A stretch of DNA of 42,559 nucleotides from a virus (Duplodnaviria > Heunggongvirae > Uroviricota > Caudoviricetes). Under the pieces are notes generated by a model that was not told the origin of the DNA, searched no databases, and worked only from the letters and a program-made list of their open reading frames with translations. The DNA is taken from IMG/VR virus record IMGVR_UViG_2872698443_000008; one strand, 5' to 3'. Positions 1 through 41,191 of this stretch are shown one piece after another; positions within the stretch are counted from its first letter, which is position 1; each line of letters starts with the position of its first letter. The position numbers were made by a program, and so were the translations under genes.

Positions 1-2754
1 ATGAACTGGATTGGTTCTCGGTGGTGGAAATTCGACTTCCATAATCACACTCCGGCATCGGACGATTATGGAAAAGGCCCTAATCAGGCCCAGTATATGC
101 AGATCACTCATAAAGATTGGCTGCTCAACTACATGCGACAAGGCATCGATTGTGTCGCTGTCACGGACCATAATTCAGGCGCTTGGATTGATCCGCTCAA
201 GCAGGCACTCAAGGAACTGGCATCTGAGAGTCATGAAGATTATCGACCACTCTACTTATTCCCAGGTGTTGAGCTTACTGTTCAGGGGAATATCCATATT
301 CTGGCCATTTTCGGCGAAGACAAGACAACCTCTGATATCGACTCACTGCTTGGTGCGGTCAGGTATCGCGGCACCAAAGGAAAGAGCGACGGCTGCTCTG
401 AATGCTCAGCAGTTGAGGTGATCGACGAAATTGCTAGGTCAGGAGGACTTGCAATACCTGCTCATGTAGATCAGGCTAGCGGACTTTTTACGGTCTGTAC
501 GGGCAACACACTAGAGCAGGTGCTTGACAACAAATGTGTTTTTGCTATGGAGGTAACGGACCTTGCTAAAGCAAAACCGCAGCTCTATATTGGCAAGAAT
601 TTGAATTGGGCAGAGATTCTTGGAACCGATTCCCATCATCCGTCCGGTACCGGAAATCAACGCTACCCGGGTAGCCATTTCACTTGGGTAAAAATGTCGG
701 AGCCATCTTATGACGGATTACGGCTGGCGCTCGTTGATGGGGCTCTTTCACTGAAGCGGTCGGACAACTTCACTGGTGACCCAAATATCCATGGACAACT
801 TGCCATCGAAAGTATCGTGGTTGATGATGCGAAGTACTTAGGACGAGGGCAATCTTTAACTTGTCAACTGAACCCCTGGCTCAACACTATCATTGGTGGA
901 CGAGGCACTGGGAAATCGACTTCGTTGGAATTCCTGCGGATTGCTCTTAAACGAAAGGGAGAAATCCCCAAGAGCCTTGAAAAGGAATTTACCAAATACA
1001 GTCAAACTTCGAAAGACCGCCAAGATGAAGGGCTGTTAAAAGATTCCACGAAAATAACTGTAGGCTTTCGAAAAGACGGTGGCCGTTTCCGAATCACCTG
1101 GTCTAATACCGACGACATATACAGCATCGAGGAAGAGACCGCTCCCGGAGTCTGGTGTGATTCCGAGGGAGACATAGCACAACGATTTCCTGTCAGGATT
1201 TACAGCCAGAAACAGATATTCGAATTGGCAAAGCATCCCCAAGCACTCTTGCAGGTTGTCGATGATGCCCCGGAGGTCAATCATCGTGATTGGCAGCTTA
1301 AGTGGGATGAACTGGTTTCCAAATATCTCTCGCTTCGCGCCCAAGAGCGTGAAGTTCAGGCTGGGCTTCAGGAAGAATCGGTAACCAAAGGTCAGCTTGA
1401 AGACGTCAAACGCAAACTCGATGTTTTTGAAAAGGCGGGCCACGCGGATGTCCTTAAGGCTTACCAACTCAGACAGAACCAGAGTAAGGCTATGGACTCC
1501 TGGGTAACGACTTGGGAGGATTCCGCCGAACAGGTCCGAGATATTTCTGGAAGCCTACTGCCAGCAGAATTGGATTTACAATATTTCGACATTGGGAATG
1601 CGGATGACAAAGAACTCTTCGATACCATCAAGGACATCCGTGCGACGTTTGAGAAGCTTCAGACAGAGATGAACTCGATCGCGCAGCGGATTGATGATGT
1701 GAAGAACTCATGGAATCAAACTCGATCAGACTTGGGAATATCGAAAAGAATTACAGCGGCGAGCCATGAATACAACGCCCTCCTCGGTCAACTCAGCGCA
1801 GCAGACGCAGGTGATCCATCTGCATATGGTGTTCTGGTTAAGCAGCGACAAGATTTCGAAGATAAGCTCAAGGGATTCGACAAAAAGAGAGAAACTCTTG
1901 CGCAGCATCAGAAGAGCGCGGAAGAATACTTGGTCAAACTCCATGAGCATCGAGCATTGATAACCAAACTTCGTGAGGACTTTCTCAAGGATACTCTCGT
2001 CGGCAATTCATATGTACAGATCAATGTCATTCCGTTTGGAAACAAGATTACGGTTGAGGAAGAATTCCGTAACCTGATCGGCCGCAGTGGTGGCGGATTT
2101 GACCGCGACATTGGAGTTGTTGACGGGGATGAGGGCTTGCTGGCTTATTTAACGCAAGACCAATCCAATACTATGGATGATAAAATTGAGAAAATAAAAT
2201 CATCGCTACTTGCAATCCATGAAAACGATACTATGGCGGTGGAATCCTGCAAAGATCGACGTTTTGTATCCCTCATTCAGGGGCTAACTCCGGAACAGAT
2301 AGATCGAATTCAGTGCTGGTTTCCAGGCGATTCTCTGGATATCAGATATAGCCTCAAGAACGGCGAGAGTTTCAAACCCGTAGAGCAAGGATCTCCGGGG
2401 CAAAAAACGGCGGCTCTCCTTGCATTTATCCTTTCATATGGCAATGAGCCTCTTATACTTGATCAGCCTGAGGATGATCTTGATAACCACTTAATCTATG
2501 ATCTTATCGTGACGCAATTGCGTGAGATCAAACAAAAACGGCAGGTTTTAGTAGTCACGCACAACGCTAACATCGTCGTGAATGGTGACGCGGAAAACGT
2601 CATTGCCCTTGATATTCGGTCTGGTCAAACCAGAATTGTGGCGCAAGGGGGTCTTCAAGAACCTTCCATACGCGATGAGATATGCCGAGTGATGGAAGGT
2701 GGCAAAGAGGCCTTTACCCAAAGATATAAACGAATCAATGCAGCAATCAAATAG
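1..2754 (+). CDS. PHP-domain phosphoesterase fused to ABC/SMC-type ATPase with central coiled coil (917 aa); candidate single-gene defence protein
   Basis: Full-length ORF from position 1. N-terminal PHP motifs FDFHNHT, VTDHNS, PAHVD, GTDSHH. Walker A GGRGTGKST at nt 895-921. Long E/K/Q/L-rich region (aa ~400-700). C-terminal ABC signature-like SPGQKTAAL, Walker B LILDQPEDDLD (nt ~2461-2490), H-loop VVTHNANIV. Confidence 0.8.
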   Translation: MNWIGSRWWKFDFHNHTPASDDYGKGPNQAQYMQITHKDWLLNYMRQGIDCVAVTDHNSGAWIDPLKQALKELASESHEDYRPLYLFPGVELTVQGNIHILAIFGEDKTTSDIDSLLGAVRYRGTKGKSDGCSECSAVEVIDEIARSGGLAIPAHVDQASGLFTVCTGNTLEQVLDNKCVFAMEVTDLAKAKPQLYIGKNLNWAEILGTDSHHPSGTGNQRYPGSHFTWVKMSEPSYDGLRLALVDGALSLKRSDNFTGDPNIHGQLAIESIVVDDAKYLGRGQSLTCQLNPWLNTIIGGRGTGKSTSLEFLRIALKRKGEIPKSLEKEFTKYSQTSKDRQDEGLLKDSTKITVGFRKDGGRFRITWSNTDDIYSIEEETAPGVWCDSEGDIAQRFPVRIYSQKQIFELAKHPQALLQVVDDAPEVNHRDWQLKWDELVSKYLSLRAQEREVQAGLQEESVTKGQLEDVKRKLDVFEKAGHADVLKAYQLRQNQSKAMDSWVTTWEDSAEQVRDISGSLLPAELDLQYFDIGNADDKELFDTIKDIRATFEKLQTEMNSIAQRIDDVKNSWNQTRSDLGISKRITAASHEYNALLGQLSAADAGDPSAYGVLVKQRQDFEDKLKGFDKKRETLAQHQKSAEEYLVKLHEHRALITKLREDFLKDTLVGNSYVQINVIPFGNKITVEEEFRNLIGRSGGGFDRDIGVVDGDEGLLAYLTQDQSNTMDDKIEKIKSSLLAIHENDTMAVESCKDRRFVSLIQGLTPEQIDRIQCWFPGDSLDIRYSLKNGESFKPVEQGSPGQKTAALLAFILSYGNEPLILDQPEDDLDNHLIYDLIVTQLREIKQKRQVLVVTHNANIVVNGDAENVIALDIRSGQTRIVAQGGLQEPSIRDEICRVMEGGKEAFTQRYKRINAAIK

Positions 2755-2860
2755 AACGGAGTTGCACTTGAACGGCAATTGCGCTGAGCTCAATTGCCGC
2801 CAATGCTTGGTCGTTAACGTCTGCTCCTGGCACAGGGCTGCTGTTGCAGCCCTGACAACC

Positions 2861-3076
2861 TTAGACTTCAATCGATTCAGAGATCTCTAACGCATCATCG
2901 ACTTCAATGCCCAGATAACGGAATGTGCTTTCCAGTTTCTTATGACCCAACAGAAGTTGAATCACCCGAAGATTCTTGGTCAGCGGACAATAGGTGCAAC
3001 GCCATATTGAACCCTTAAGACTAAAGTGGACCGATATAGTAAGCGTTACACTGACCCGTTGCCAGCATCGAAATGC
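2861..3076 (-). pseudogene. Tyrosine recombinase C-terminal remnant (no start codon, ~70 codons open)
   Basis: Minus-strand translation reads ...TKNLRVIQLLLGHKKLESTFRYLGIEVDDALEISESIEV*, resembling the LLGH...Y box II region of integrases/Xer recombinases. Upstream frame closed by a stop at 3077-3079. Confidence 0.4.
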
Positions 3077-3344
3077 CTAAGCTACGAAAACTCTTTGACG
3101 GACATAATGTTCCTCATGTTTGCCACATGTCTCCGATTGAGCACAACTATAGTCTGCTGATGAGACTAATTATGGCACTGAGCAGACCTGCTCGCTAGGC
3201 GAGATCCGCTGTGAGCGAATTGCAGAGGTCTCGAATATGCTTGATAATAATGCTTGAAGATATAATTGGTATGAGCCTGAAAATTTATTTTTAAAGAATT
3301 ATTAAATACTGCCGATGTTAATAATTATACTAAAAAAAAGGAAC

Positions 3345-3851
3345 ATGGAATTTATGTTAAATTTAGACGAAATGTGCAGCGCATTAAGAAAACAATACTC
3401 TATAACGGCTGGTCAAGATGGTGAGAAATATGCTAGTAGATGGCTGGAAAAATCCAAGTGGAAATTTGAACATGTTGAGCAAGGAATAAATACTTTATCT
3501 GCAAACTTGAAATCATATGGGGGGAAACGCCCCGATTTCATTATTGACGCTGACGAATCCTCTTATATTCTTTTAGATGCGAAGTATCACTCAACAGATG
3601 GGTGTACCTCCTTTACACTTACTGATTGTGAAATAGGAAAGTATAGAGCACTTCAGCAATTCTTAAAAAATGTGTATAGTGATTGTACTTTCGAAGTAGT
3701 CTTTATGGTGTTTCCGAAAGAAAAAAATGGTGACGAATTTACATTTGTGAGTCTAGATGAGTTTGATAAAGGAGAGTGTACGACTCTAGCATCAAAAGAT
3801 GCAACGAAAATTAGTCTACTCTATCGAGATGACTTATGGTTTAAAAGTTGA
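3345..3851 (+). CDS. Small low-GC protein with PD-(D/E)xK nuclease-like motif (about 168 aa)
   Basis: ORF 3315-3851; ATG at 3345 follows AAGGA (ATG at 3354 is an alternative). Motif KRPDFIIDADESSYILLDAKYH (PD ... D-A-K). Markedly AT-rich relative to flanks. Confidence 0.6.
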   Translation: MEFMLNLDEMCSALRKQYSITAGQDGEKYASRWLEKSKWKFEHVEQGINTLSANLKSYGGKRPDFIIDADESSYILLDAKYHSTDGCTSFTLTDCEIGKYRALQQFLKNVYSDCTFEVVFMVFPKEKNGDEFTFVSLDEFDKGECTTLASKDATKISLLYRDDLWFKS

Positions 3852-4193
3852 TTAATAAAAAACAATTGGCTTTCACCATTTTTAATTACTTTTCCCAGCA
3901 TGCCGAAAATGTCTCATTTATTTGAATGATTGTATCTTTAATAGATATATCGCGACTATTCCTAAACTTATTTCTAGTTGTTAACAAAACTGTGTGCTAT
4001 GAATGTCTGCTGTTGGCACATAGCAGTTCTAGAGACAGTGGCGTAAAGTCATGGAGAATCGGTGGAAGGAGGTGCAAACCCTCTCATACAAAAATGCGTA
4101 AAATCAGTAACGGCTGGAAATCATTCAATACTCGCACTATCAAAAGTTCACCAGCCAACCGCGACACCTCCTGCATACGACATGTCTGCGGTT

Positions 4194-4748
4194 TTATATA
4201 ACCCTGGCTGGAAACCTCTTATACAAAGTTGACACACCAACATCATAGATAATAGCCACCTTCTGGCGAGGAACGCCTGATGCAATTAATCGCCCGGCCT
4301 GCGCCCATTGTTCTGGTGTAAGTTTGGGACGACGTCCACCAATTCGTCCCTGTGCGCGAGCAGCTTCCAGTCCAGCTTTTGTTCGTTCAACAATCAGTTC
4401 TCGTTCCATTTCAGCCAGGGCACCCATCACATGAAAGAAAAAACGCCCCATCGGTGTGCTGGTATCAATAGCATCCGTCAGGCTGCGAAAATTAACGCCA
4501 CGTTCGCGCAACTCCTCAACCAGAATGACCAGATGCCGCATACTACGTCCCAGCCGATCCAGCTTCCAGACAACCAGAGTGTCACCTGCCGATAATGTCC
4601 TGAGCAGTTTTTTCAGTCCCGGCCTTTCGGACTTTGTACCGCTTACCTTGTCTTCAAAAATCAGCTCGCATCCTGCACAGTTCAGCGCATTACGTTGTAG
4701 ATCTGTGTTCTGGTCATTTGTTGACACACGTACATAGCCAATAAGCAT
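4194..4748 (-). CDS. pin: Serine DNA invertase (Pin/Gin/Hin/Cin family)
   Basis: N-terminus MLIGYVRVSTNDQNTDLQ with catalytic Ser motif, C-terminal HTH; start taken at internal Met of ORF 4194-4784. Lies next to the invertible tail-fibre segment. Confidence 0.9.
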   Translation of the reverse strand: MLIGYVRVSTNDQNTDLQRNALNCAGCELIFEDKVSGTKSERPGLKKLLRTLSAGDTLVVWKLDRLGRSMRHLVILVEELRERGVNFRSLTDAIDTSTPMGRFFFHVMGALAEMERELIVERTKAGLEAARAQGRIGGRRPKLTPEQWAQAGRLIASGVPRQKVAIIYDVGVSTLYKRFPARVI

Positions 4749-4804: not shown

Positions 4805-4828
4805 TTCATAAACGTTGGTTTGGGAGAA
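4805..4828. promoter_or_regulatory. Invertase crossover site (left boundary of invertible segment)
   Basis: ttcataaacgttggtttgggagaa; reverse complement TTCTCCCAAACCAACG shares the half-site plus AA core with the site at 7484-7509, in inverted orientation. Confidence 0.6.
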
Positions 4829-5164
4829 GCGGCAAAACGGAATGTGGGAACAGGGGAAAATCAGATACCAGATATGTCTGCATTTCCATCTGGCAAAAAC
4901 TGGTTTCAGTTACCAAGTGGTCATATTGTCCAAATGTTTTCGATGAATGTTTATGGGGCGGACACTAACGGAACTACAGGTAATTTCCCTATTGCATTTC
5001 CTTCAGGCGCACTGGCTGTTAGTGCCTTATGGTCAGATGGCACATTAACGGCTGCTCCGACCTTTAAACTTATGGGGTACACGACAACAAGGACATCAGT
5101 AACCTTAAAAGTATCAGCCGGAAATGGTTTGTATGGAACTATGATTATCGCAATAGGAAGATAA
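4829..5164 (+). CDS. Silent alternative tail-fibre C-terminal cassette (promoterless, no own start)
   Basis: Open frame 4775-5164 on the opposite strand to the expressed fibre, ending 1 nt before the alternative assembly gene; begins at the crossover site. Confidence 0.5.
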   Translation, partial: AAKRNVGTGENQIPDMSAFPSGKNWFQLPSGHIVQMFSMNVYGADTNGTTGNFPIAFPSGALAVSALWSDGTLTAAPTFKLMGYTTTRTSVTLKVSAGNGLYGTMIIAIGR

Positions 5165-5380
5165 TATGAATCAATATATTTATTCCCCTTCGGAAAATGC
5201 TTTTTATGCTGTTAATTTAAAAAACACTTATGAAGTAAATGGAACATGGCCTGCTGATGCATTAGATATTCCTGATGACATTTCTGTAAAATATATGGCG
5301 GAACCGCCACAAGGGAAAATCCGAGTTGCAGGGGAAAATGGTTTTCCCACATGGGTTGAAATACCGGTAATGACTCCAAC

Positions 5381-5884
5381 TTATTGATAGTGTTTTATGT
5401 TCAGATAATGCCCGATGACTTTGTCATGCAGCTCCACCGATTTTGAGAACGACAGCGACTTCCGTCCCAGCCGTGCCAGGTGCTGCCTCAGATTCAGGTT
5501 ATGCCGCTCAATTCGCTGCGTATATCGCTTGCTGATTACGTGCAGCTTTCCCTTCAGGCGGGATTCATACAGCGGCCAGCCATCCGTCATCCATATCACC
5601 ACGTCAAAGGGTGACAGCAGGCTCATAAGACGCCCCAGCGTCGCCATCGTGCGTTCACCGAATACGTGCGCAACAACCGTCTTCCGGAGCCTGTCATACG
5701 CGTAAAACAGCCAGCGCTGGCGCGATTTAGCCCCGACATAGCCCCACTGTTCGTCCATTTCCGCGCAGACGATGACGTCACTGCCCGGCTGTATGCGCGA
5801 GGTTACCGACTGCGGCCTGAGTTTTTTAAGTGACGTAAAATCGTGTTGAGGCCAACGCCCATAATGCGGGCAGTTGCCCGGCAT
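5381..5884 (-). CDS. insB: IS1 transposase InsB reading frame
   Basis: Overlaps insA 3' end in a different frame, as in IS1 (InsAB' by frameshift); sequence ...[41 protein letters not shown]... Confidence 0.9.
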
Positions 5885-6078
5885 CCAACGCCATTCATGG
5901 CCATATCAATGATTTTCTGGTGCGTACCGGGTTGAGAAGCGGTGTAAGTGAACTGCAGTTGCCATGTTTTACGGCAGTGAGAGCAGAGATAGCGCTGATG
6001 TCCGGCGGTGCTTTTGCCGTTACGCACCACCCCGTCAGTAGCTGAACAGGAGGGACAGCTGATAGAAACAGAAGCCAC
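5803..6078 (-). CDS. insA: IS1 InsA
   Basis: [43 protein letters not shown]... zinc-finger N-terminus typical of InsA. Confidence 0.9.
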
Positions 6079-6356
6079 TGGAGCACCTCAAAAACACCAT
6101 CATACACTAAATCAGTAAGTTGGCAGCATTACCGAAATACCTCCACCATCACATGAGGAACTTATTGAACAGGCCGAATCAGAGAGGCAATTATTGATTA
6201 ACCAGGCCAACGAATACATGAACAGTAAACAATGGCCCGGTAAAGCCGCTATTGGTCGTCTGAAAGGCGAGGAACTGGCACAATATAATTCGTGGCTGGA
6301 TTATCTGGACGCACTGGAACTGGTCGATACTTCCGGGGCGCCAGATATTGAATGGC

Positions 6357-6962
6357 CTACGCCTCCGGCAGTTCAGGCCAGATGACATCCGGCGCGGTGC
6401 TGGTATCTGTTGCCGTCACCGCGTCAATGTAATCCAGCACAGCGTTAAGGCGGGTTGTTTCTGCCTGCGTCAGTTTACGTCCGGCCTGTAATTTCAGCTG
6501 AATCAGACTGATGGAGGCCATTGCAGTATCAATCAGTGACTGGCGCTGTGCTTCTGCCGTGTCTACTGCGACGCTATGCTGTGCCTCAGTATCGGTCACC
6601 CATTTCTCACCATCCCATTTATCGTATGGTGTTAACGGGGCGATAGTTGTGGTATTTTCAGGGTAATCACCCGGAGCTGTGATTTCTTTTGACTCTCCCG
6701 TTTTGGTGCTATAGACGATTTCACCGCGATGGTCTGGCACATATTCCCATGAGTTAAAATTTGCAGAACGACAGATAGCATAACCCACCTTATATGTGCC
6801 AGGAGCATCTAAACAGGAATATGCGGGGATACCGACACCCACAGCAAGATATTCAATTGATGCAGAAATATACTCCCGTGTCTCACTGTCATAGTTATAA
6901 ACGGTAATCTCTCCTGCCTTTGTGGCAATAAATTTATTATTTAAGATGGCGTTATACATCAT
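6357..6962 (-). CDS. Tail-fibre assembly protein (active orientation)
   Basis: 201 aa, directly downstream of the tail-fibre gene with ATGA overlap; conserved C-terminal assembly-protein motif. Confidence 0.85.
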
Positions 6963-7786
6963 GCAGCCCTCACAATGTAATTAAATGAAATATTACGTGG
7001 GCGTGTCTCTGCTGCACCGACAATACTGGTGCTCAACCCCGTTGCCGTTCGTTTGTTATTTTTATTTCCTTCAATCAGACAGTTGTAATCATCATTACCA
7101 ATTAACGAATTGGTGGCATCAATACTGTCCGGGGACAAGGCATTAGTAGTGGAACTTAAAGTCAGCATCTCGTCTGAACTTGGAAGATTTTTTAATGGTG
7201 TTTCATTGCGTGAAATACCCGCGTAAAAAAAGGACTCATGCCTGTGAGCTTCAAAAGAGTCATCCTGAAGACTTAGCAAGGCTCGCCCCGCATCCACTCC
7301 ACGTCCATCATCCCAGCCACGAATAAATTCACCGCGTAAATCAGGCAATTTATTGGTCGGGTAAGCCTTTGCCAGTTCCGGGTATTCTTCAGCAGAAAAA
7401 GCCGCACCATTGCATTTCAGCCAGCCTGTTGGCGGAGTGGCTGAAGGCCACGGAACAGGCACCCCAACCGGTAATGCAGAGCCTTCTCCCAAACCAAGGT
7501 TTTCGAGAGCCGTTTTCACCGTGCCATCCGATTTGATATCGCCAAACGGATTCTTGCGGCTTAACAGCAGCGCACGAAGCGCGGTAAGCAACTGGTCGTG
7601 CCGCGCCTTCTCCAGGCTGGCACCGGATGCCTCCACCACGCTGCAGAGTTCTTCCTGCAACATATCAAAGTAGTCATCATCCAGATCGGTGGCAGGCGTG
7701 CCAGTCTGGGGGTTACCACGGGTAAAACCGTTCTTACCCGCGCCGAACTTATCCTTCTGCGCGGTTTTCGTGTCTATACGATGCAT
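6959..7786 (-). CDS. Tail-fibre protein (constant N-terminus outside, variable C-terminus inside the invertible segment)
   Basis: 275 aa; conserved fibre N-terminus [41 protein letters not shown]. Crossover site 7484-7509 lies inside the gene. Confidence 0.85.
7484..7509. promoter_or_regulatory. Invertase crossover site (right boundary, inside tail-fibre gene)
   Basis: ttctcccaaaccaaggttttcgagag, hix/gix-like with central AA. Confidence 0.6.
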
Positions 7787-12847: not shown

Positions 12848-14681
12848 TTACCTGCCAAAGCGCGTATAGCCAACATCATGGCTGACATCAAAACCGCTGG
12901 ATCGCGTTTCCATAACCCGCATACCCGGAGGCGAATTCACAAAAGAGACCTTGATCTCACCATCAACTTTTGGCGCAGAAGCTTTGTTAATCATGAAGGG
13001 ATTCAGGCCTGTGGCACCGGAGGCGTTGTTTGACTGAGCCGGATCTACCGCCGGATAAGGTGTGTATCCCCGCGCCGGTATTCCCGTCCCATAAGCATCA
13101 TAAGCACCCGCGCCCCACTGCGCAGAGTTAATGGCATCGACCGTGTCACCGGAACTGTCGGTAAACCACTCAATAATTGGCTTCAGCTTGTCCCACATAT
13201 CCTGAAACCACTTAACAACCGGTCCCCAGTTATTGATCACCATCCCCAGCGGCGACCAGGCAAAAACCTTCTTAAGAAGTTCCCAGCCAGTCTCAAAATA
13301 AGGACCAATGGTTTCCCAGAGTTTCTTAAAATAAGGTCCGACAACATCCCAGTTAGTGATAATTAATCCCGCAGCGAGGGCTATCGCCGTCGCAATCATG
13401 CCAATCGGCGTCATCGACATGATCCTGCTGACAATACTGATGGCACCGCCAACGCCCATCAATCCCAGTTTCAGAATCGCAAGACCGGCAGCAAGCCCGA
13501 CGACGCCGCGAATAACCCGGGGATTTTCATCCGCAAACTTCGTGAATTTTTCCCCTAACTCCCCAGCCATTGCGTGATATTTTTAGCGTCACCAGAAAAT
13601 GCGCCGCCAATAGCCGCAAGGCCGTTAGTTGCGGTCCCCGTCATTGCCTCCCACAGGTTGGACAGCGTACCAAGCTGAGCCTGAACACGTTTATTCAGGC
13701 TGGCCTGTTTATTCATCTTCTGCTGGATCTGATCGTAGCCATCCTTTCCTTTATCGATCAGCGCATTGACCACCTGAAGGGTTTCGGCATCATCACCAAA
13801 TATTGCCTTAAGTACACCGGTTCGCTTAACGTCGGTCAGTTTTCGCAGCTTTGCCAGTTGCCTGAACATGTTATCAAGACCGCCAAAACTCCCTTTGCCA
13901 TCAGTAAAATCGAGCTGTACCCCGAGTTTCTGGCGGGCCATGATTTTATTGACGTCCCTGATTTTCTTAACGCTTAATCCGGACTGGATAACTTTTCGCA
14001 GGGCATTACCTGCCGACTCCCCGTTCATCCCCATCTGATCCATCATGACACTGATGGGGCAAGACTCTGTGCAGCCTGAAGACCGTCCTTATTCACCATT
14101 TTCAGAACAGAACTGGTTTTAGTGAAGAAGGACAACATGTTGGTATCATCAACGCCCAGATAAAACGCCTTCTGGATAGTGTCGAACAGCCCCATCATGT
14201 CTTCTGACGCCGTTCCGGTAGCATCCTGCATCTTTGCAGCAAACTCAGCAGCCGCTTCCGGTGTTTTTTTCAGTTGTACCGCAAGATAAGCTGTCGCTTT
14301 ACCCACACCACCAAGAATGTTTTCTGCCGGGATCCCCTGACGCACCAGCATCTGCATCATGTTCTGGAAATCAGCCGTTGTACCGGGTAGCTGGTTACCC
14401 AGGCCAATAGCCAGTTTATTGATGTCCTGAAAGCTCTTTCCAACCTCGCCGTTCGCATCCATCATGGCGACTTTCAGCCCGGTGGCGGCGTTTTCCTGAT
14501 CGGCATAAGATTTCAGGGAAAGCGTCAGACCCGCTGCCAGTCCGCCACCAAGCGCCAGCCCACCCTGTGACGCTTCTTCCGCCTGGCGTTTAAATCCCCG
14601 GATTTTCTTTTGCATTTTCGACAGCGCGGGAGAAAGCCTGTCGACACCGGTGATCAACGCCTTAAGCTCAAATTCAGCCAT
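12848..14681 (-). pseudogene. Tail tape measure region split into three consecutive overlapping ORFs (212+163+240 aa)
   Basis: ORFs 14043-14681, 13555-14046, 12848-13570 overlap by 4 and 16 nt. Tape-measure-like composition (Ala/Gly-rich, C-terminal hydrophobic stretch). Either frameshifted or genuinely split. Confidence 0.55.
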
Positions 14682-17833: not shown

Positions 17834-18172
17834 TCACGCCATAGAACAAAAAAGCCGGATAAAAATCACCGGTGATACGGCGGTTTCCCTCTCCATTACG
17901 CTGGTTAGGGCTATACGTGCCATAAAACCAGGGCGATGTTTACTGGCTCTGGGTACCATATACCCAATCGAACGTGCCAGGCGTCCGGTCTGATAACCGG
18001 GGTTTTCACCCGGTGCCGACCGCGCACGGCGCATCACCAGCCGACGGGCATCACGCATATGACGCTGACCAATCGTGACAAACGCCCGCCGGACACGGGC
18101 GCGGTTAAAGCGCATCTCCGCGGGCTGCTGAAAATCAACGTGCAAAAAGGAAGTCGTCATTGTTGCCTCCAT
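17834..18172 (-). CDS. Tail-component protein (HK97 gp10-like)
   Basis: 112 aa; position after head closure gene. Confidence 0.55.
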   Translation of the reverse strand: MEATMTTSFLHVDFQQPAEMRFNRARVRRAFVTIGQRHMRDARRLVMRRARSAPGENPGYQTGRLARSIGYMVPRASKHRPGFMARIALTSVMERETAVSPVIFIRLFCSMA

Positions 18173-24750: not shown

Positions 24751-25101
24751 TTACTTAATCCGTTCACGGGCCGTCTTCGCCTTATGACACGGCCAGCACA
24801 GACTCTGTAGGTTACTGTCTGCATCGGTGCCGCCATGCGCTTTAGGGATGATGTGGTCAACGGTTTTCGCCTCGCGCACCACACCGGCACGCAGGCACAA
24901 CTGGCACAGGCCTTTGTCACGCTTCAGCACACGCGCGCGGATAACGTCCCACTTCGAACCATAACCGCGCTGATGACGGGACTGGCCAGACTTGTATTGC
25001 TTCCAGCCTTCGCTTTTGTGGCTTTCGCAGTAGCCTGATGGGTCAGTCGTGGTATGGCGGCAGCCGCGAACGCGGCAGGCTTTTGGGGTTCGTGGAGGCA
25101 T
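24751..25101 (-). CDS. HNH endonuclease (terminase-associated)
   Basis: 116 aa, Cys-rich with ...VDHIIPKAHGGTDADSNLQSLCWPCHKAKT... HNH motif. Confidence 0.85.
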   Translation of the reverse strand: MPPRTPKACRVRGCRHTTTDPSGYCESHKSEGWKQYKSGQSRHQRGYGSKWDVIRARVLKRDKGLCQLCLRAGVVREAKTVDHIIPKAHGGTDADSNLQSLCWPCHKAKTARERIK

Positions 25102-25228
25102 CTATTATCCCTGTAGTTTTCGTTAAATATCTAACCATAACTGCAATCAGAAACCGCTTTAACACGGTTTGCTAAATAGACTTTTCAATCCAATGAATAA
25201 ACGGCAAGTAAATACCAATCGTTCATTT

Positions 25229-25675
25229 TCATTTGAATACAAACTGTTCTGAAAGAATATTATGACAAATATATTTCGCCTGAATACTATTATCTCTCAT
25301 TCTAATATATTCTTTGTGGGCAACAGATAAAGAACGACAACCGCTGTTTACACGTGGGTATTTTTCCAACATATGTTCGCATATCAAAAAAGCATTATTA
25401 ATAGCATTTAATTTATGGCTTAACTCTCGTAGCTCGGCCCTTTTTTCAATACGAACATTACGACTAAGAGATAAAGGTAGCTGTGATAATGCATTTGAAT
25501 AATCAGCCACTGCCATTTTCAGAGCCATTTTGGCCTTCAGAGCCTCCTGTCGCCGCCAAACATTCATTGCCCAAAAACCTAATGTAACAGTTACAATTGA
25601 ACCTAAAGCCGATACAGCTGACCACACAGTTCCCCAAGGCCAGTTAAGTAATGTATGCCACATCATAACCTCCAC
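25229..25675 (-). CDS. Low-GC membrane-anchored hypothetical protein (moron)
   Basis: 148 aa; N-terminal hydrophobic helix WGTVWSAVSALGSIVTVTLGFWAMNVW; AT-rich, with a 350-bp AT-rich upstream region. Confidence 0.5.
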   Translation of the reverse strand: MEVMMWHTLLNWPWGTVWSAVSALGSIVTVTLGFWAMNVWRRQEALKAKMALKMAVADYSNALSQLPLSLSRNVRIEKRAELRELSHKLNAINNAFLICEHMLEKYPRVNSGCRSLSVAHKEYIRMRDNSIQAKYICHNILSEQFVFK

Positions 25676-26031
25676 TGAATGAAAAGGTTAGTTTATCGTA
25701 AGTGAACATCACTGGCACTATCTAAAGATTAGCTGCTCTACTAGTTGTACTCTCGATAATCTAAACAAAATGATACGTAATAAACCTGTTCATGACTAGC
25801 TCTACTAGACACATGTTTAATCATCTACAAACGATTTGTACAAACTTCCACTTTCATATTGGTCCAAAATGTTGGACTAATAGTTAATCACGATGCATAT
25901 TTTATGTAAGCTGCTACATTACACTATAAAAACGCTGGCGTCTGAATTTAAGCCCATAAGTTTTATAAAATTATCATAATACACAGCTTTATTAGGCGCA
26001 TTCGCACTGATAATGAAAAATATAACTCGAG

Positions 26032-31608: not shown

Positions 31609-32439
31609 TCAATGAACGGTATCGAGCAGCTTTAACAGCTCAGGGAATCGGGATTCGAAGAAATGCGGCTGCGTCTCGCGCGGATTTGCAGGACTGGTAA
31701 TGTTCTTGCCGAACATGCAGCCTTTCGCCGTCAGCGACCAGAATTTTTTGATGTTGTTAATCGCGGTACGGCTGTATCGTTCGCGTTGTTCAACGATCCC
31801 CAGCTTCGCCATCTGGTGATATGCCTGATTAGCTGTCAGGCGGATACCATACTGCCTCAGCAGTGCACTCAGTGACAGCGTGGGGCGGCTTGAGCCATCA
31901 GGCGCGTCAGCAGGAGCATCAATGGCATAGCGCGGTGCCAGATTCGGTAAGCCAACAGCCTCCTGGAGTTTCTGACAGGCACCAAGCACTGAAGAGTTAG
32001 ACAGGTTTAATTCCCGGCGCATAAAGTCCAGCAGAATCACACCAGCCTGCATCTTGTCAGCAGCCTGTCCGGATAATTTTTCCGGTGCGCTGGTTACCAT
32101 GTCGAAAGTACGGATCACCTTCAGATGGAATGACGGGCTGATCCACATTGCATAGGCATACACCAGTTCTTTGCAGACATACGTCCCCTGGTTATTTCCG
32201 CCACGAATAACGTTAACTGGCTCTATATTGACCGAGTTGCAAATCTGCAACTCGCTTATTAAACGTTCAGTTTGCTCATTGCGGAGCCAGAATGCAGGCT
32301 TATGCTTATCCAGAGAACCGGCAGCCCTGTGCAGATCGTTCAGGCTGTAACGTCCATAAGCATCACGACGAACTTCAATACCATCAATGACCATCAGATT
32401 ATTCATACTTCGTTTCTCCTCTTGATCAGGCGGCTGCAC
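31609..32439 (-). CDS. KilA-N domain antirepressor-like protein
   Basis: N-terminal ...LMVIDGIEVRRDAYGRYSLNDLHRAAG...; probable start at Met 12. Confidence 0.65.
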   Translation of the reverse strand: MQPPDQEEKRSMNNLMVIDGIEVRRDAYGRYSLNDLHRAAGSLDKHKPAFWLRNEQTERLISELQICNSVNIEPVNVIRGGNNQGTYVCKELVYAYAMWISPSFHLKVIRTFDMVTSAPEKLSGQAADKMQAGVILLDFMRRELNLSNSSVLGACQKLQEAVGLPNLAPRYAIDAPADAPDGSSRPTLSLSALLRQYGIRLTANQAYHQMAKLGIVEQRERYSRTAINNIKKFWSLTAKGCMFGKNITSPANPRETQPHFFESRFPELLKLLDTVH

Positions 32440-32815
32440 CCGCCGTTTTCTCGTACTTACTGATAGTGATCTCGACCTTCCCTTCCGGGATAACCGGTCC
32501 CCACTCCACCAGCATTCTTTTCACCTGGCTGTCGTCTTCCCACACACCCGCGTGGGTCAGGGCGTCAAACAGTGCCTTGTTATAGTTGTCCAGATCGCGG
32601 ATCCGGTTATCCGGAGGAAACAACACGATCTCCACTGAAGCAGGTGCCGACGTTGGTTTTGGCAGACGACGTAACTGCTCAACTATTGCTGCACACGCCG
32701 CGCTCTGAAATTTTCGCCCCGCCGCGCTTATCAGGCTCTTACCAGCAAATGCCCCTTTGTTGGGGTGTCGCCAGTACGTGTTCACGCTGGGCGGGAAAGG
32801 AAGGATCAACTTCAT
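32426..32815 (-). CDS. rusA: Holliday junction resolvase RusA
   Basis: 129 aa, MKLILPFPPSVNTYWRH...DLDNYNKALFDALTHAGVWEDDSQV..., RusA signature. Confidence 0.85.
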   Translation of the reverse strand: MKLILPFPPSVNTYWRHPNKGAFAGKSLISAAGRKFQSAACAAIVEQLRRLPKPTSAPASVEIVLFPPDNRIRDLDNYNKALFDALTHAGVWEDDSQVKRMLVEWGPVIPEGKVEITISKYEKTAGAAA

Positions 32816-41101: not shown

Positions 41102-41115
41102 CTTATTGATTTAAA

Positions 41116-41191
41116 TGGTGCCGATAATAGGAGTCGAACCTACGACCTTCGCATTACGAATGCGCTGCTCTACCAACTGAGCTATATCGGC
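41116..41191 (-). tRNA. thrW: tRNA-Thr (anticodon CGU)
   Basis: Reverse complement reads GCCGATATAGCTCAGTTGGTAGAGCAGCGCATTCGTAATGCGAAGGTCGTAGGTTCGACTCCTATTATCGGCACCA. Confidence 0.9.

Follow-up and report, generated by a model that had tools for sequence, protein, structure and literature searches.

The stretch of DNA analysed here, called the window, is the whole of IMG/VR virus record IMGVR_UViG_2872698443_000008, 42,559 nucleotides (nt) long, and is a nearly whole e14-like prophage of E. coli at tRNA-Thr(CGU), thrW. Near its start lies a small gene whose product, a 165-amino-acid (aa) hypothetical protein (WP_015364431.1), is predicted to be a stand-alone nuclease of the PD-(D/E)xK fold. 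A first reading made from the letters, referred to below as the sequence-only reading, had singled out this open reading frame (ORF) as a low-GC segment between an invertase gene and a PHP-ATPase gene. Both points agree with the data: pinE lies at 4194-4748 (minus strand), a gene for a protein with PHP and ABC-type ATPase domains lies at 1-2754, and the GC content of the ORF is 0.357 against a window median of 0.52. The gene and the codons of its predicted active site are given below, with residue numbers counted from position 3345 and conservation counted over 145 family sequences at no more than 50% mutual identity.

3354-3851, plus strand: gene for the stand-alone PD-(D/E)xK nuclease-fold protein, 165 aa; alternative in-frame starts at 3345 and 3315.
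3423-3425, plus strand: codon of E27, the acidic residue of helix alpha-1 (144/145; helix 19-36 of the model).
3525-3590, plus strand: predicted catalytic core, K61-R62-P63-D64 ... D78-A-K80-Y-H82 (conservation; McrC and RmuC matches).
3630-3644, plus strand: E96-x-x-x-Y100, start of helix alpha-2 (E96 128/145, with Asp in 14 more; Y100 111/145; helix 94-110).

The plus-strand ORF spans 3315-3851, and position 3345, where the gene had been made to begin in the sequence-only reading, is an in-frame ATG. The true start is most likely the ATG at 3354, because 28 of 34 homologues begin at the equivalent codon and RefSeq annotates the coding sequence as 3354-3851 (+); the ORF of that reading stands and its start most likely does not. 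Pairwise ratios of non-synonymous to synonymous substitution (dN/dS) are 0.08-0.21 between the window gene and five orthologues and 0.08-0.29 over all computable pairs, and these values mark the ORF as a real gene under purifying selection. The segment has the lowest GC anywhere in the 42.5-kb window: the conserved module around the gene (3205-4010) has a value of 0.334, the ATPase (TrlF) gene 0.475 and pin 0.495.

An AlphaFold2 model built on a 34-sequence alignment (predicted local distance difference test, pLDDT, 89.3; predicted template modelling score, pTM, 0.84) contains the alpha-beta-beta-beta-alpha-beta core of the PD-(D/E)xK superfamily. In it E27 lies within helix 19-36, D64 opens strand 65-68, and strand 73-82 carries both D78 and K80; helix 94-110 and strand 115-124 come next. 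The motif itself, RPDFIIDADESSYILLDAKYH, is encoded at 3528-3590, with the codons of D64, D78 and K80 at 3534-3536, 3576-3578 and 3582-3584. The catalytic signature of the superfamily (Asp of beta-2, (D/E)xK of beta-3 and the acidic residue of alpha-1) is present and is conserved throughout the family: E27 in 144 of 145 members, D64 in all 145, D78 in 143 (Glu in the other 2) and K80 in 143. Because these residues are kept in 143-145 of 145 divergent relatives, the motif is no chance match. Also conserved are Q46 (130), K61 (137), R62 (140), E96 (128, plus Asp in 14) and Y100 (111), the last two forming an E96-x-x-x-Y100 element which, we assume, recalls the QxxxY motif of RecB-type nucleases. 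The minimal PD-(D/E)xK fold with a Glu-bearing helix, originally proposed from the motif, is thereby supported by the model and by family conservation, which place the motif residues at canonical positions, inside a nuclease-like active site and not outside it.

Structural comparison with Foldseek ranks the archaeal Holliday junction resolvase Hjc first, followed by the SPARDA nuclease domain and HincII, and resolvases as a class (Hjc, Hje, RecU and viral Hjc-like proteins) provide the best structural matches; a fold search of BFVD gave weak matches (template modelling score ~0.5) to viral Hjc/RecU-like proteins. The likeness to Hjc (PDB 2WCW, 1GEF, 1HH1) and to Hje (1OB8), likewise an archaeal Holliday junction resolvase, is one of fold. 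Unlike Hjc, with which it shares no detectable sequence homology (hhalign probability 1%), the window protein has a low-confidence insertion of ~20 residues between beta-1 and beta-2, an N-terminal helix and a beta-rich C-terminal extension of ~45 residues; and its gene is bacterial mobile-element cargo, whereas Hjc is encoded by an archaeal core gene.

By sequence the closest family is the RmuC nuclease domain (PF02646), which aligns over E...PD...DxK...ExxxY. All scores to it are sub-threshold: among the close members 20 of 34 have such a match, the best of them at E 1.1e-05, and among the distant ones 6 of 113 do, and the window protein itself scores 15 bits against a gathering cut-off of 26, which places it outside the family. 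RmuC is also much longer and has N-terminal regions that the window protein lacks. RmuC-type nucleases serve phage defence in the Shield system, as cited in bioRxiv 10.1101/2024.07.02.601686. Sub-threshold matches to McrC/Pfam McrBC occur for 10 of the 34 close members; against McrC (PDB 6UT5) the match is a local one to the motif, (K/R)PD(F/Y)(I/V)...(L)DAKY, and is not significant (E 0.17), and McrC is a protein of 350-450 aa that works with the McrB GTPase, whereas no such partner is encoded at the window gene. Among the 113 distant members there are scattered sub-threshold matches to RmuC, NERD, HSDR_N, DpnII, PDDEXK_7 and VRR_NUC, so that the weak sequence matches are confined to nuclease families. 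Pfam has no above-threshold match for the window protein, no Hjc-family match was found in Pfam scans of 147 members (34 + 113), and neither phmmer nor the family profile found anything significant in the PDB.

The family is small. A word-indexed search of 5.8 billion proteins returned no more than 38 clusters, whose proteins are ~165-180 aa long and come without exception from Gammaproteobacteria, and a profile search of 1.84 billion cluster representatives gave 239 matches at E<=1e-3 (85 at E<=1e-10), most of the proteins listed among the 239 being 150-210 aa long. The gene is very rare, being present in 16 of 5426 Escherichia coli genomes, and tblastn against 50,697 phage genomes returned no match to it; a literature search on WP_015364431.1 found nothing. 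Judged by these searches the nuclease family is rare and uncharacterised, and is described by no database.

The gene is conserved together with its own flanks, as a one-gene module comprising the gene, ~125-150 bp of 5' flank and ~150 bp of 3' flank. DNA identity of ~80% extends over 3228-4010 against a Rahnella P2-like prophage and over 3205-3990 against a Citrobacter locus, in keeping with the stand-alone gene in prophage cargo that had been proposed. The module and its putative expression signals are the following.

3205-4010, plus strand: self-contained one-gene module of ~0.8 kb, conserved as a unit in unrelated prophages of other Enterobacterales.
3237-3266, plus strand: putative promoter region, the tandem 13-nt repeat ATGCTTGAnnATA in two copies (3237-3262) overlapping TATAAT (3261-3266); consensus-level.
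3338-3343, plus strand: Shine-Dalgarno-like AAGGAA, 10 nt 5' of the ATG at 3354, read from the sequence.

The TATA core (3261-3266) is invariant across six loci, the upstream flank common to six loci holds a conserved TAAAGAAT block, and the ribosome-binding region, AAAGGAAC, is kept in homologous loci. A generic promoter scan did not call the TATAAT region; it found promoter-like and terminator sites in numbers no greater than in shuffled sequence, and its lone 'terminator' falls within the nuclease ORF. Of the proposal that the gene has an AT-rich promoter of its own, the conserved AT-rich upstream region with its TATAAT therefore holds, and the promoter is putative, a consensus-level call that the scan did not flag. 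The ~150 nt downstream (3852-4010) are kept with the gene in the Rahnella and Citrobacter loci and partly in E. coli icd-prophage loci.

Thirteen further independent contexts of the family were compared; loci are cited by number below where coordinates require it.

Lambdoid prophage at icd, E. coli and Shigella: int - gene - Septu PtuB/PtuA - icd.
Rahnella P2-like prophage: gene between gpV and gpS.
Citrobacter prophage end: gene beside umuDC.
Enterobacter: gene at the P2 ogr end.
Vibrio cholerae chromosomal integron: one-gene cassette.
Mobilizable island: gene downstream of Shedu (SduA).
Siphophage: gene at the phage end.
Satellite-like element: gene on an element carrying a P4-type primase.
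Acinetobacter locus: gene downstream of a type III restriction-modification (R-M) system.
Halomonas locus: gene next to a transposase.
Chromosomal islets, three: gene context.

No neighbour of the nuclease gene is conserved across the 13 contexts. In the Rahnella prophage the nuclease module is closely preceded by another uncharacterised cargo gene, of 329 aa (L015 5844-6833), that has no significant family match; this gene occupies the P2 orf30 position between gpV and gpS and falls outside the conserved 780-bp unit. Defence genes directly adjoin the nuclease gene in five contexts: TrlF/Ppl-like, Septu PtuA/PtuB, Shedu SduA, type III R-M and a type IV restriction endonuclease-like cassette. 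No methyltransferase gene lies beside the gene in the window or in most other contexts, and among the contexts only L005 carries, upstream of the gene, a whole type III R-M system of its own.

The V. cholerae homologue, seen on one contig of one assembly, is 37% identical and has its catalytic residues intact. Its cassette is bounded by attC/V. cholerae repeats (VCR) at L021 6847-6968 and 7529-7649, and the nuclease ORF is the sole ORF between them, with 32 nt from attC to the start and 3 nt from the stop to the next attC. Such a single-ORF cassette is strong evidence that the protein functions as a whole by itself, with neither a protein partner nor an antitoxin or a methylase. One-gene defence systems, RmuC-related nucleases included, have been shown by experiment to abound in integron cassettes (bioRxiv 10.1101/2024.07.02.601686); Damona and other one-gene V. 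cholerae integron cassettes, Damona among them encoding an RmuC-related PD-(D/E)xK nuclease, were shown to protect against phage by Darracq et al. (same preprint). The window-protein homologue is likewise a V. cholerae integron cassette. It is set apart from Damona by domain, since Damona is defined by DUF6602 and none of 147 family members matches DUF6602; because it was seen on one contig of one assembly, it is probably not among the 16 N16961 cassettes tested.

The cassette also bears on a role of the gene as a toxin, whether in a toxin-antitoxin pair or in an abortive-infection module. A toxin had been entertained in the sequence-only reading; one of the classical kind, paired with a protein antitoxin, is disfavoured: there is no conserved neighbour, no small antitoxin gene is co-conserved, and the V. 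cholerae homologue fills its cassette alone. An antidote could instead be encoded within the conserved flanks, for example as a cis-encoded antisense or small RNA, and the retention of ~150 nt downstream and ~125 nt upstream with the gene at ~80% identity would fit this, as would a weak minus-strand promoter-like site (3984-3955) directed into the 3' end of the gene. However, the short spacers of the cassette (32 nt and 3 nt) leave no room for a second element, the downstream conserved stretch is missing from more distant homologous loci, no Rfam RNA family was found within 2700-4300, and the count of promoter-like sites does not exceed that of shuffled sequence. A toxin with an antidote other than a neighbouring protein is considered quite improbable.

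The diversity of the contexts likewise argues against a selfish, free-standing homing endonuclease that would cut cognate sites in related prophages and be copied in by repair. The insertion sites are mutually non-homologous and are known cargo hotspots used by other accessory genes, the gene also takes the form of an integron cassette between attC sites or has housekeeping genes as neighbours, and none of the 50,697 phage genomes has a match. The chance of this explanation is rated as slim.

Taken with the fold and the conservation of the active site, these contexts favour an autonomous PD-(D/E)xK nuclease, a reading to which a probability of roughly 0.85 is assigned. The protein would be a metal-dependent DNA endonuclease of 165 aa with a minimal Hjc-like PD-(D/E)xK fold, would act alone, probably, as with other small enzymes of this fold, in homodimeric form, and would need neither the TrlF/Ppl-like ATPase nor a methylase or antitoxin. 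Its most likely role would be minimal nuclease defence or exclusion directed against incoming phage or other foreign DNA, and to a role of this kind, suggested by genomic association, about an even chance is given. An effector role in abortive infection, which the sequence-only reading had also raised, is plausible on the same genomic association. What the analysis shows is that the gene is real, that it has this fold and conserved active-site residues, that the module is autonomous and that it lies in mobile-element cargo beside defence genes; nuclease activity, dimer state, defence role and type of substrate are deduced. Since no immunity partner travels with the gene, the enzyme probably tells its targets apart by a feature of the DNA (branched structure or base modification) and does not cut duplexes indiscriminately; the alternative is that it stays latent until infection and in that way spares host DNA. 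Given the Hjc-like fold, structure-specific cleavage is the first guess, while any particular substrate is doubtful.

In a bolder version this single protein would be an entire immune system, one of the smallest based on an enzyme: an Hjc-like enzyme that recognises DNA structure and for that reason requires no sensor, methylase or antitoxin. In such structure-sensing restriction the abundant branched replication and recombination intermediates of phages, or other non-B structures, would be cut and the few junctions of the host tolerated, which would account for the solitary spread of the gene among prophage hotspots, satellites and integron cassettes. This version is regarded as improbable.

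The same structural matches (Hjc, Hje, RecU and viral Hjc-like proteins) would equally suit a recombination or repair enzyme, a Holliday junction or branch resolvase of the Hjc/RecU/RusA kind acting for the mobile element or for the host. No immunity partner would be needed for a cell to tolerate an enzyme specific for junctions, which fits the lack of any partner gene. Against this, the prophage already encodes a RusA in its replication/nin region (32426-32815), the gene lies in low-GC cargo at the prophage end and runs in the opposite direction to pinE and the tail genes next to it, and its other settings include an integron cassette, a P4-like satellite and chromosomal islets. The lack of sequence-level similarity to Hjc and the rarity of the gene (16/5426 E. 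coli genomes) also count against such a role, and a resolvase of element or host is thought improbable as well. That the gene is the junction resolvase of the prophage itself was rejected, RusA being present.

Several observations weigh against an autonomous defence nuclease. The defence role rests on guilt by association, and several contexts (L004, L029, L030) are plain chromosomal islets without a recognisable defence neighbour. The window protein matches no family in PADLOC-DB v2.0.0 at E<=1 and none in NCBIfam, its sole PHROGs match is the unannotated family PHROG 28481, and these three collections provide no homology link to any validated defence protein. In the hhalign comparison of the family profile with Pyrococcus furiosus Hjc (1GEF sequence; probability 1%) the catalytic residues are unaligned, so that the link to Hjc holds only at the level of fold; the geometry of the active site is taken from secondary-structure positions and residue conservation and not from a residue-level superposition on Hjc. 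Lastly, the 165 aa show no evident sensor or modification-reader domain: Pfam scans of the window protein and its relatives detected no modification-reading domain.

Should phage protection prove true, a very compact single-domain nuclease would join the autonomous defence genes, and the question would be posed how a nuclease without a partner spares its host; with its 165 aa and a module of 0.8 kb, it would lend itself to transplantation and to mutagenesis. Should the protein be only a resolvase or a selfish endonuclease, it would be an ordinary accessory gene. The nuclease represents an undescribed family within a well-known kind, the small nuclease carried as prophage or integron cargo, and would not surprise a specialist unless partner-free discrimination of self from non-self proved mechanistically new.

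The surroundings of the gene are organised as exchangeable cargo at the pinE-distal end of the prophage.

1-2754, plus strand: TrlF-family/Ppl-like gene, PHP and ABC-type ATPase domains, cargo slot 1 (NCBIfam and PADLOC profiles).
2861-2965, minus strand: relic of a tyrosine-integrase C-terminus, between the slots and outside the nuclease module (RefSeq 105-nt coding sequence, called 'integrase' in some records).
2978-4004, no strand: cargo slot 2; homology with strain GF3-3 (L002) stops at 2977/2980 and resumes at 4005.
4194-4748, minus strand: pinE serine invertase, the conserved gene bordering the cargo (Pfam Resolvase 7e-52 plus HTH_7; RefSeq pinE).
41114-41162: attachment (att) core, 47 nt, in the 3' part of the tRNA-Thr(CGU) gene (41116-41191, minus strand); also at L001 8836-8884 and, in CP085522.1 (L032), ~18076-18127.

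In strain S163-2 a further copy of the att core lies ~365-414 nt before the point that corresponds to window position 1. CP085522.1, a 41.5-kb circle filed as a plasmid, contains an attP junction, pinE, the small ORF, the integrase relic and the ATPase gene, and by segment is ~82-99% identical to the window prophage; it is the excised form of a closely related prophage. Because this circle holds the attP junction together with both genes, the cargo genes lie within an element able to exist as a circle. A position of the nuclease gene outside the prophage was rejected, the att sites and the circular form enclosing it.

Strain GF3-3 shares with the window 2817-2977 and everything from 4005 onwards, the integrase relic being conserved between the two (L002 8001-8161 corresponds to window 2817-2977), and differs on either side of the relic. 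In slot 1, upstream of 2817, it has a gene for a DUF4365 nuclease-like protein where the window has TrlF, and in slot 2 an unrelated 208-aa gene where the window has the small nuclease ORF. As GF3-3 carries different genes in both slots, this end of the prophage is a two-slot exchangeable hotspot. In E. coli K-12 e14, mcrA, encoding a type IV restriction nuclease, directly follows pinE at the prophage end, which makes the slot an established site of defence cargo; the end after pinE is thus one where strains differ in the nucleases and ATPases that they carry. McrA of the cryptic prophage e14 is a positional analogue of the window protein, both being single-gene nucleases without a methylase. 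McrA, at 277 aa, belongs to the HNH enzymes and reads 5-methylcytosine through a domain of its own, whereas the window protein is a PD-(D/E)xK protein of 165 aa without a recognisable reader domain.

A short motif, ATGTCTGC(T/G)G(T/A)T, occurs at 3150-3162, 4003-4014 and 4182-4193, and an imperfect 27-nt repeat at 3112-3138 and 4167-4193. These positions fall within slot 2, at its boundary (4004/4005) and beside the pin stop codon, and the motif and repeat may be traces of module exchange by recombination.

The slot 1 gene passes the NCBIfam cut-off for TrlF (651 bits against 350) and misses that for Ppl_antiphage (631 bits against 1000), with a PADLOC Ppl match at 2.3e-157, and on these scores the gene is taken to be a relative of Ppl and not Ppl proper, with putative defence activity; a literature search on TrlF found nothing relevant. 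The sequence-only reading had raised the possibility that the nuclease is the effector or partner subunit of this PHP-ATPase in a two-gene system, and had listed co-occurrence across genomes among its checks. The two genes share a strand and a cargo region and are separated by 600 bp, an ATPase paired with a nuclease is a common defence architecture, and in two other contexts the gene adjoins an ABC/AAA_15-21 ATPase system or Shedu. Yet none of the 13 other contexts contains a TrlF/Ppl homologue, the integrase relic and the slot boundary separate the two genes, the slots are exchanged independently, and the conserved mobile unit takes in the small gene only. The whole 2755-4200 stretch is present in 13 of 5426 complete E. 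coli genomes, and because the 13, all with both genes, are 99-100% identical in DNA they represent a single lineage and provide no evidence of independent co-occurrence. Ppl is also described as a single-gene system and protects as such (PMC11482910). Co-occurrence therefore speaks against the partnership, which is held to be very improbable.

Further observations concern the rest of the prophage. The Pin-invertible tail-fibre segment (4810-7502) is in the orientation opposite to that of strain S163-2 and is interrupted by IS1 (5366-6133; insA/insB ORFs 5381-6078); this insertion has probably put one set of tail-fibre or assembly genes out of action. Between 7483 and 42559 the window differs from S163-2 (L001/L027) by 39 gap positions and ~3 mismatches over ~35 kb, and the tape-measure gene (12848-14681) is among the ORFs split into pieces in the window; the pattern of gaps suggests homopolymer indel errors in one assembly and not real decay. 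A second low-GC patch (0.35) is found at ~25100-25700, between the lysis and terminase regions, and holds an ORF of 148 aa without a Pfam match (25229-25675, minus strand), which may be another moron.

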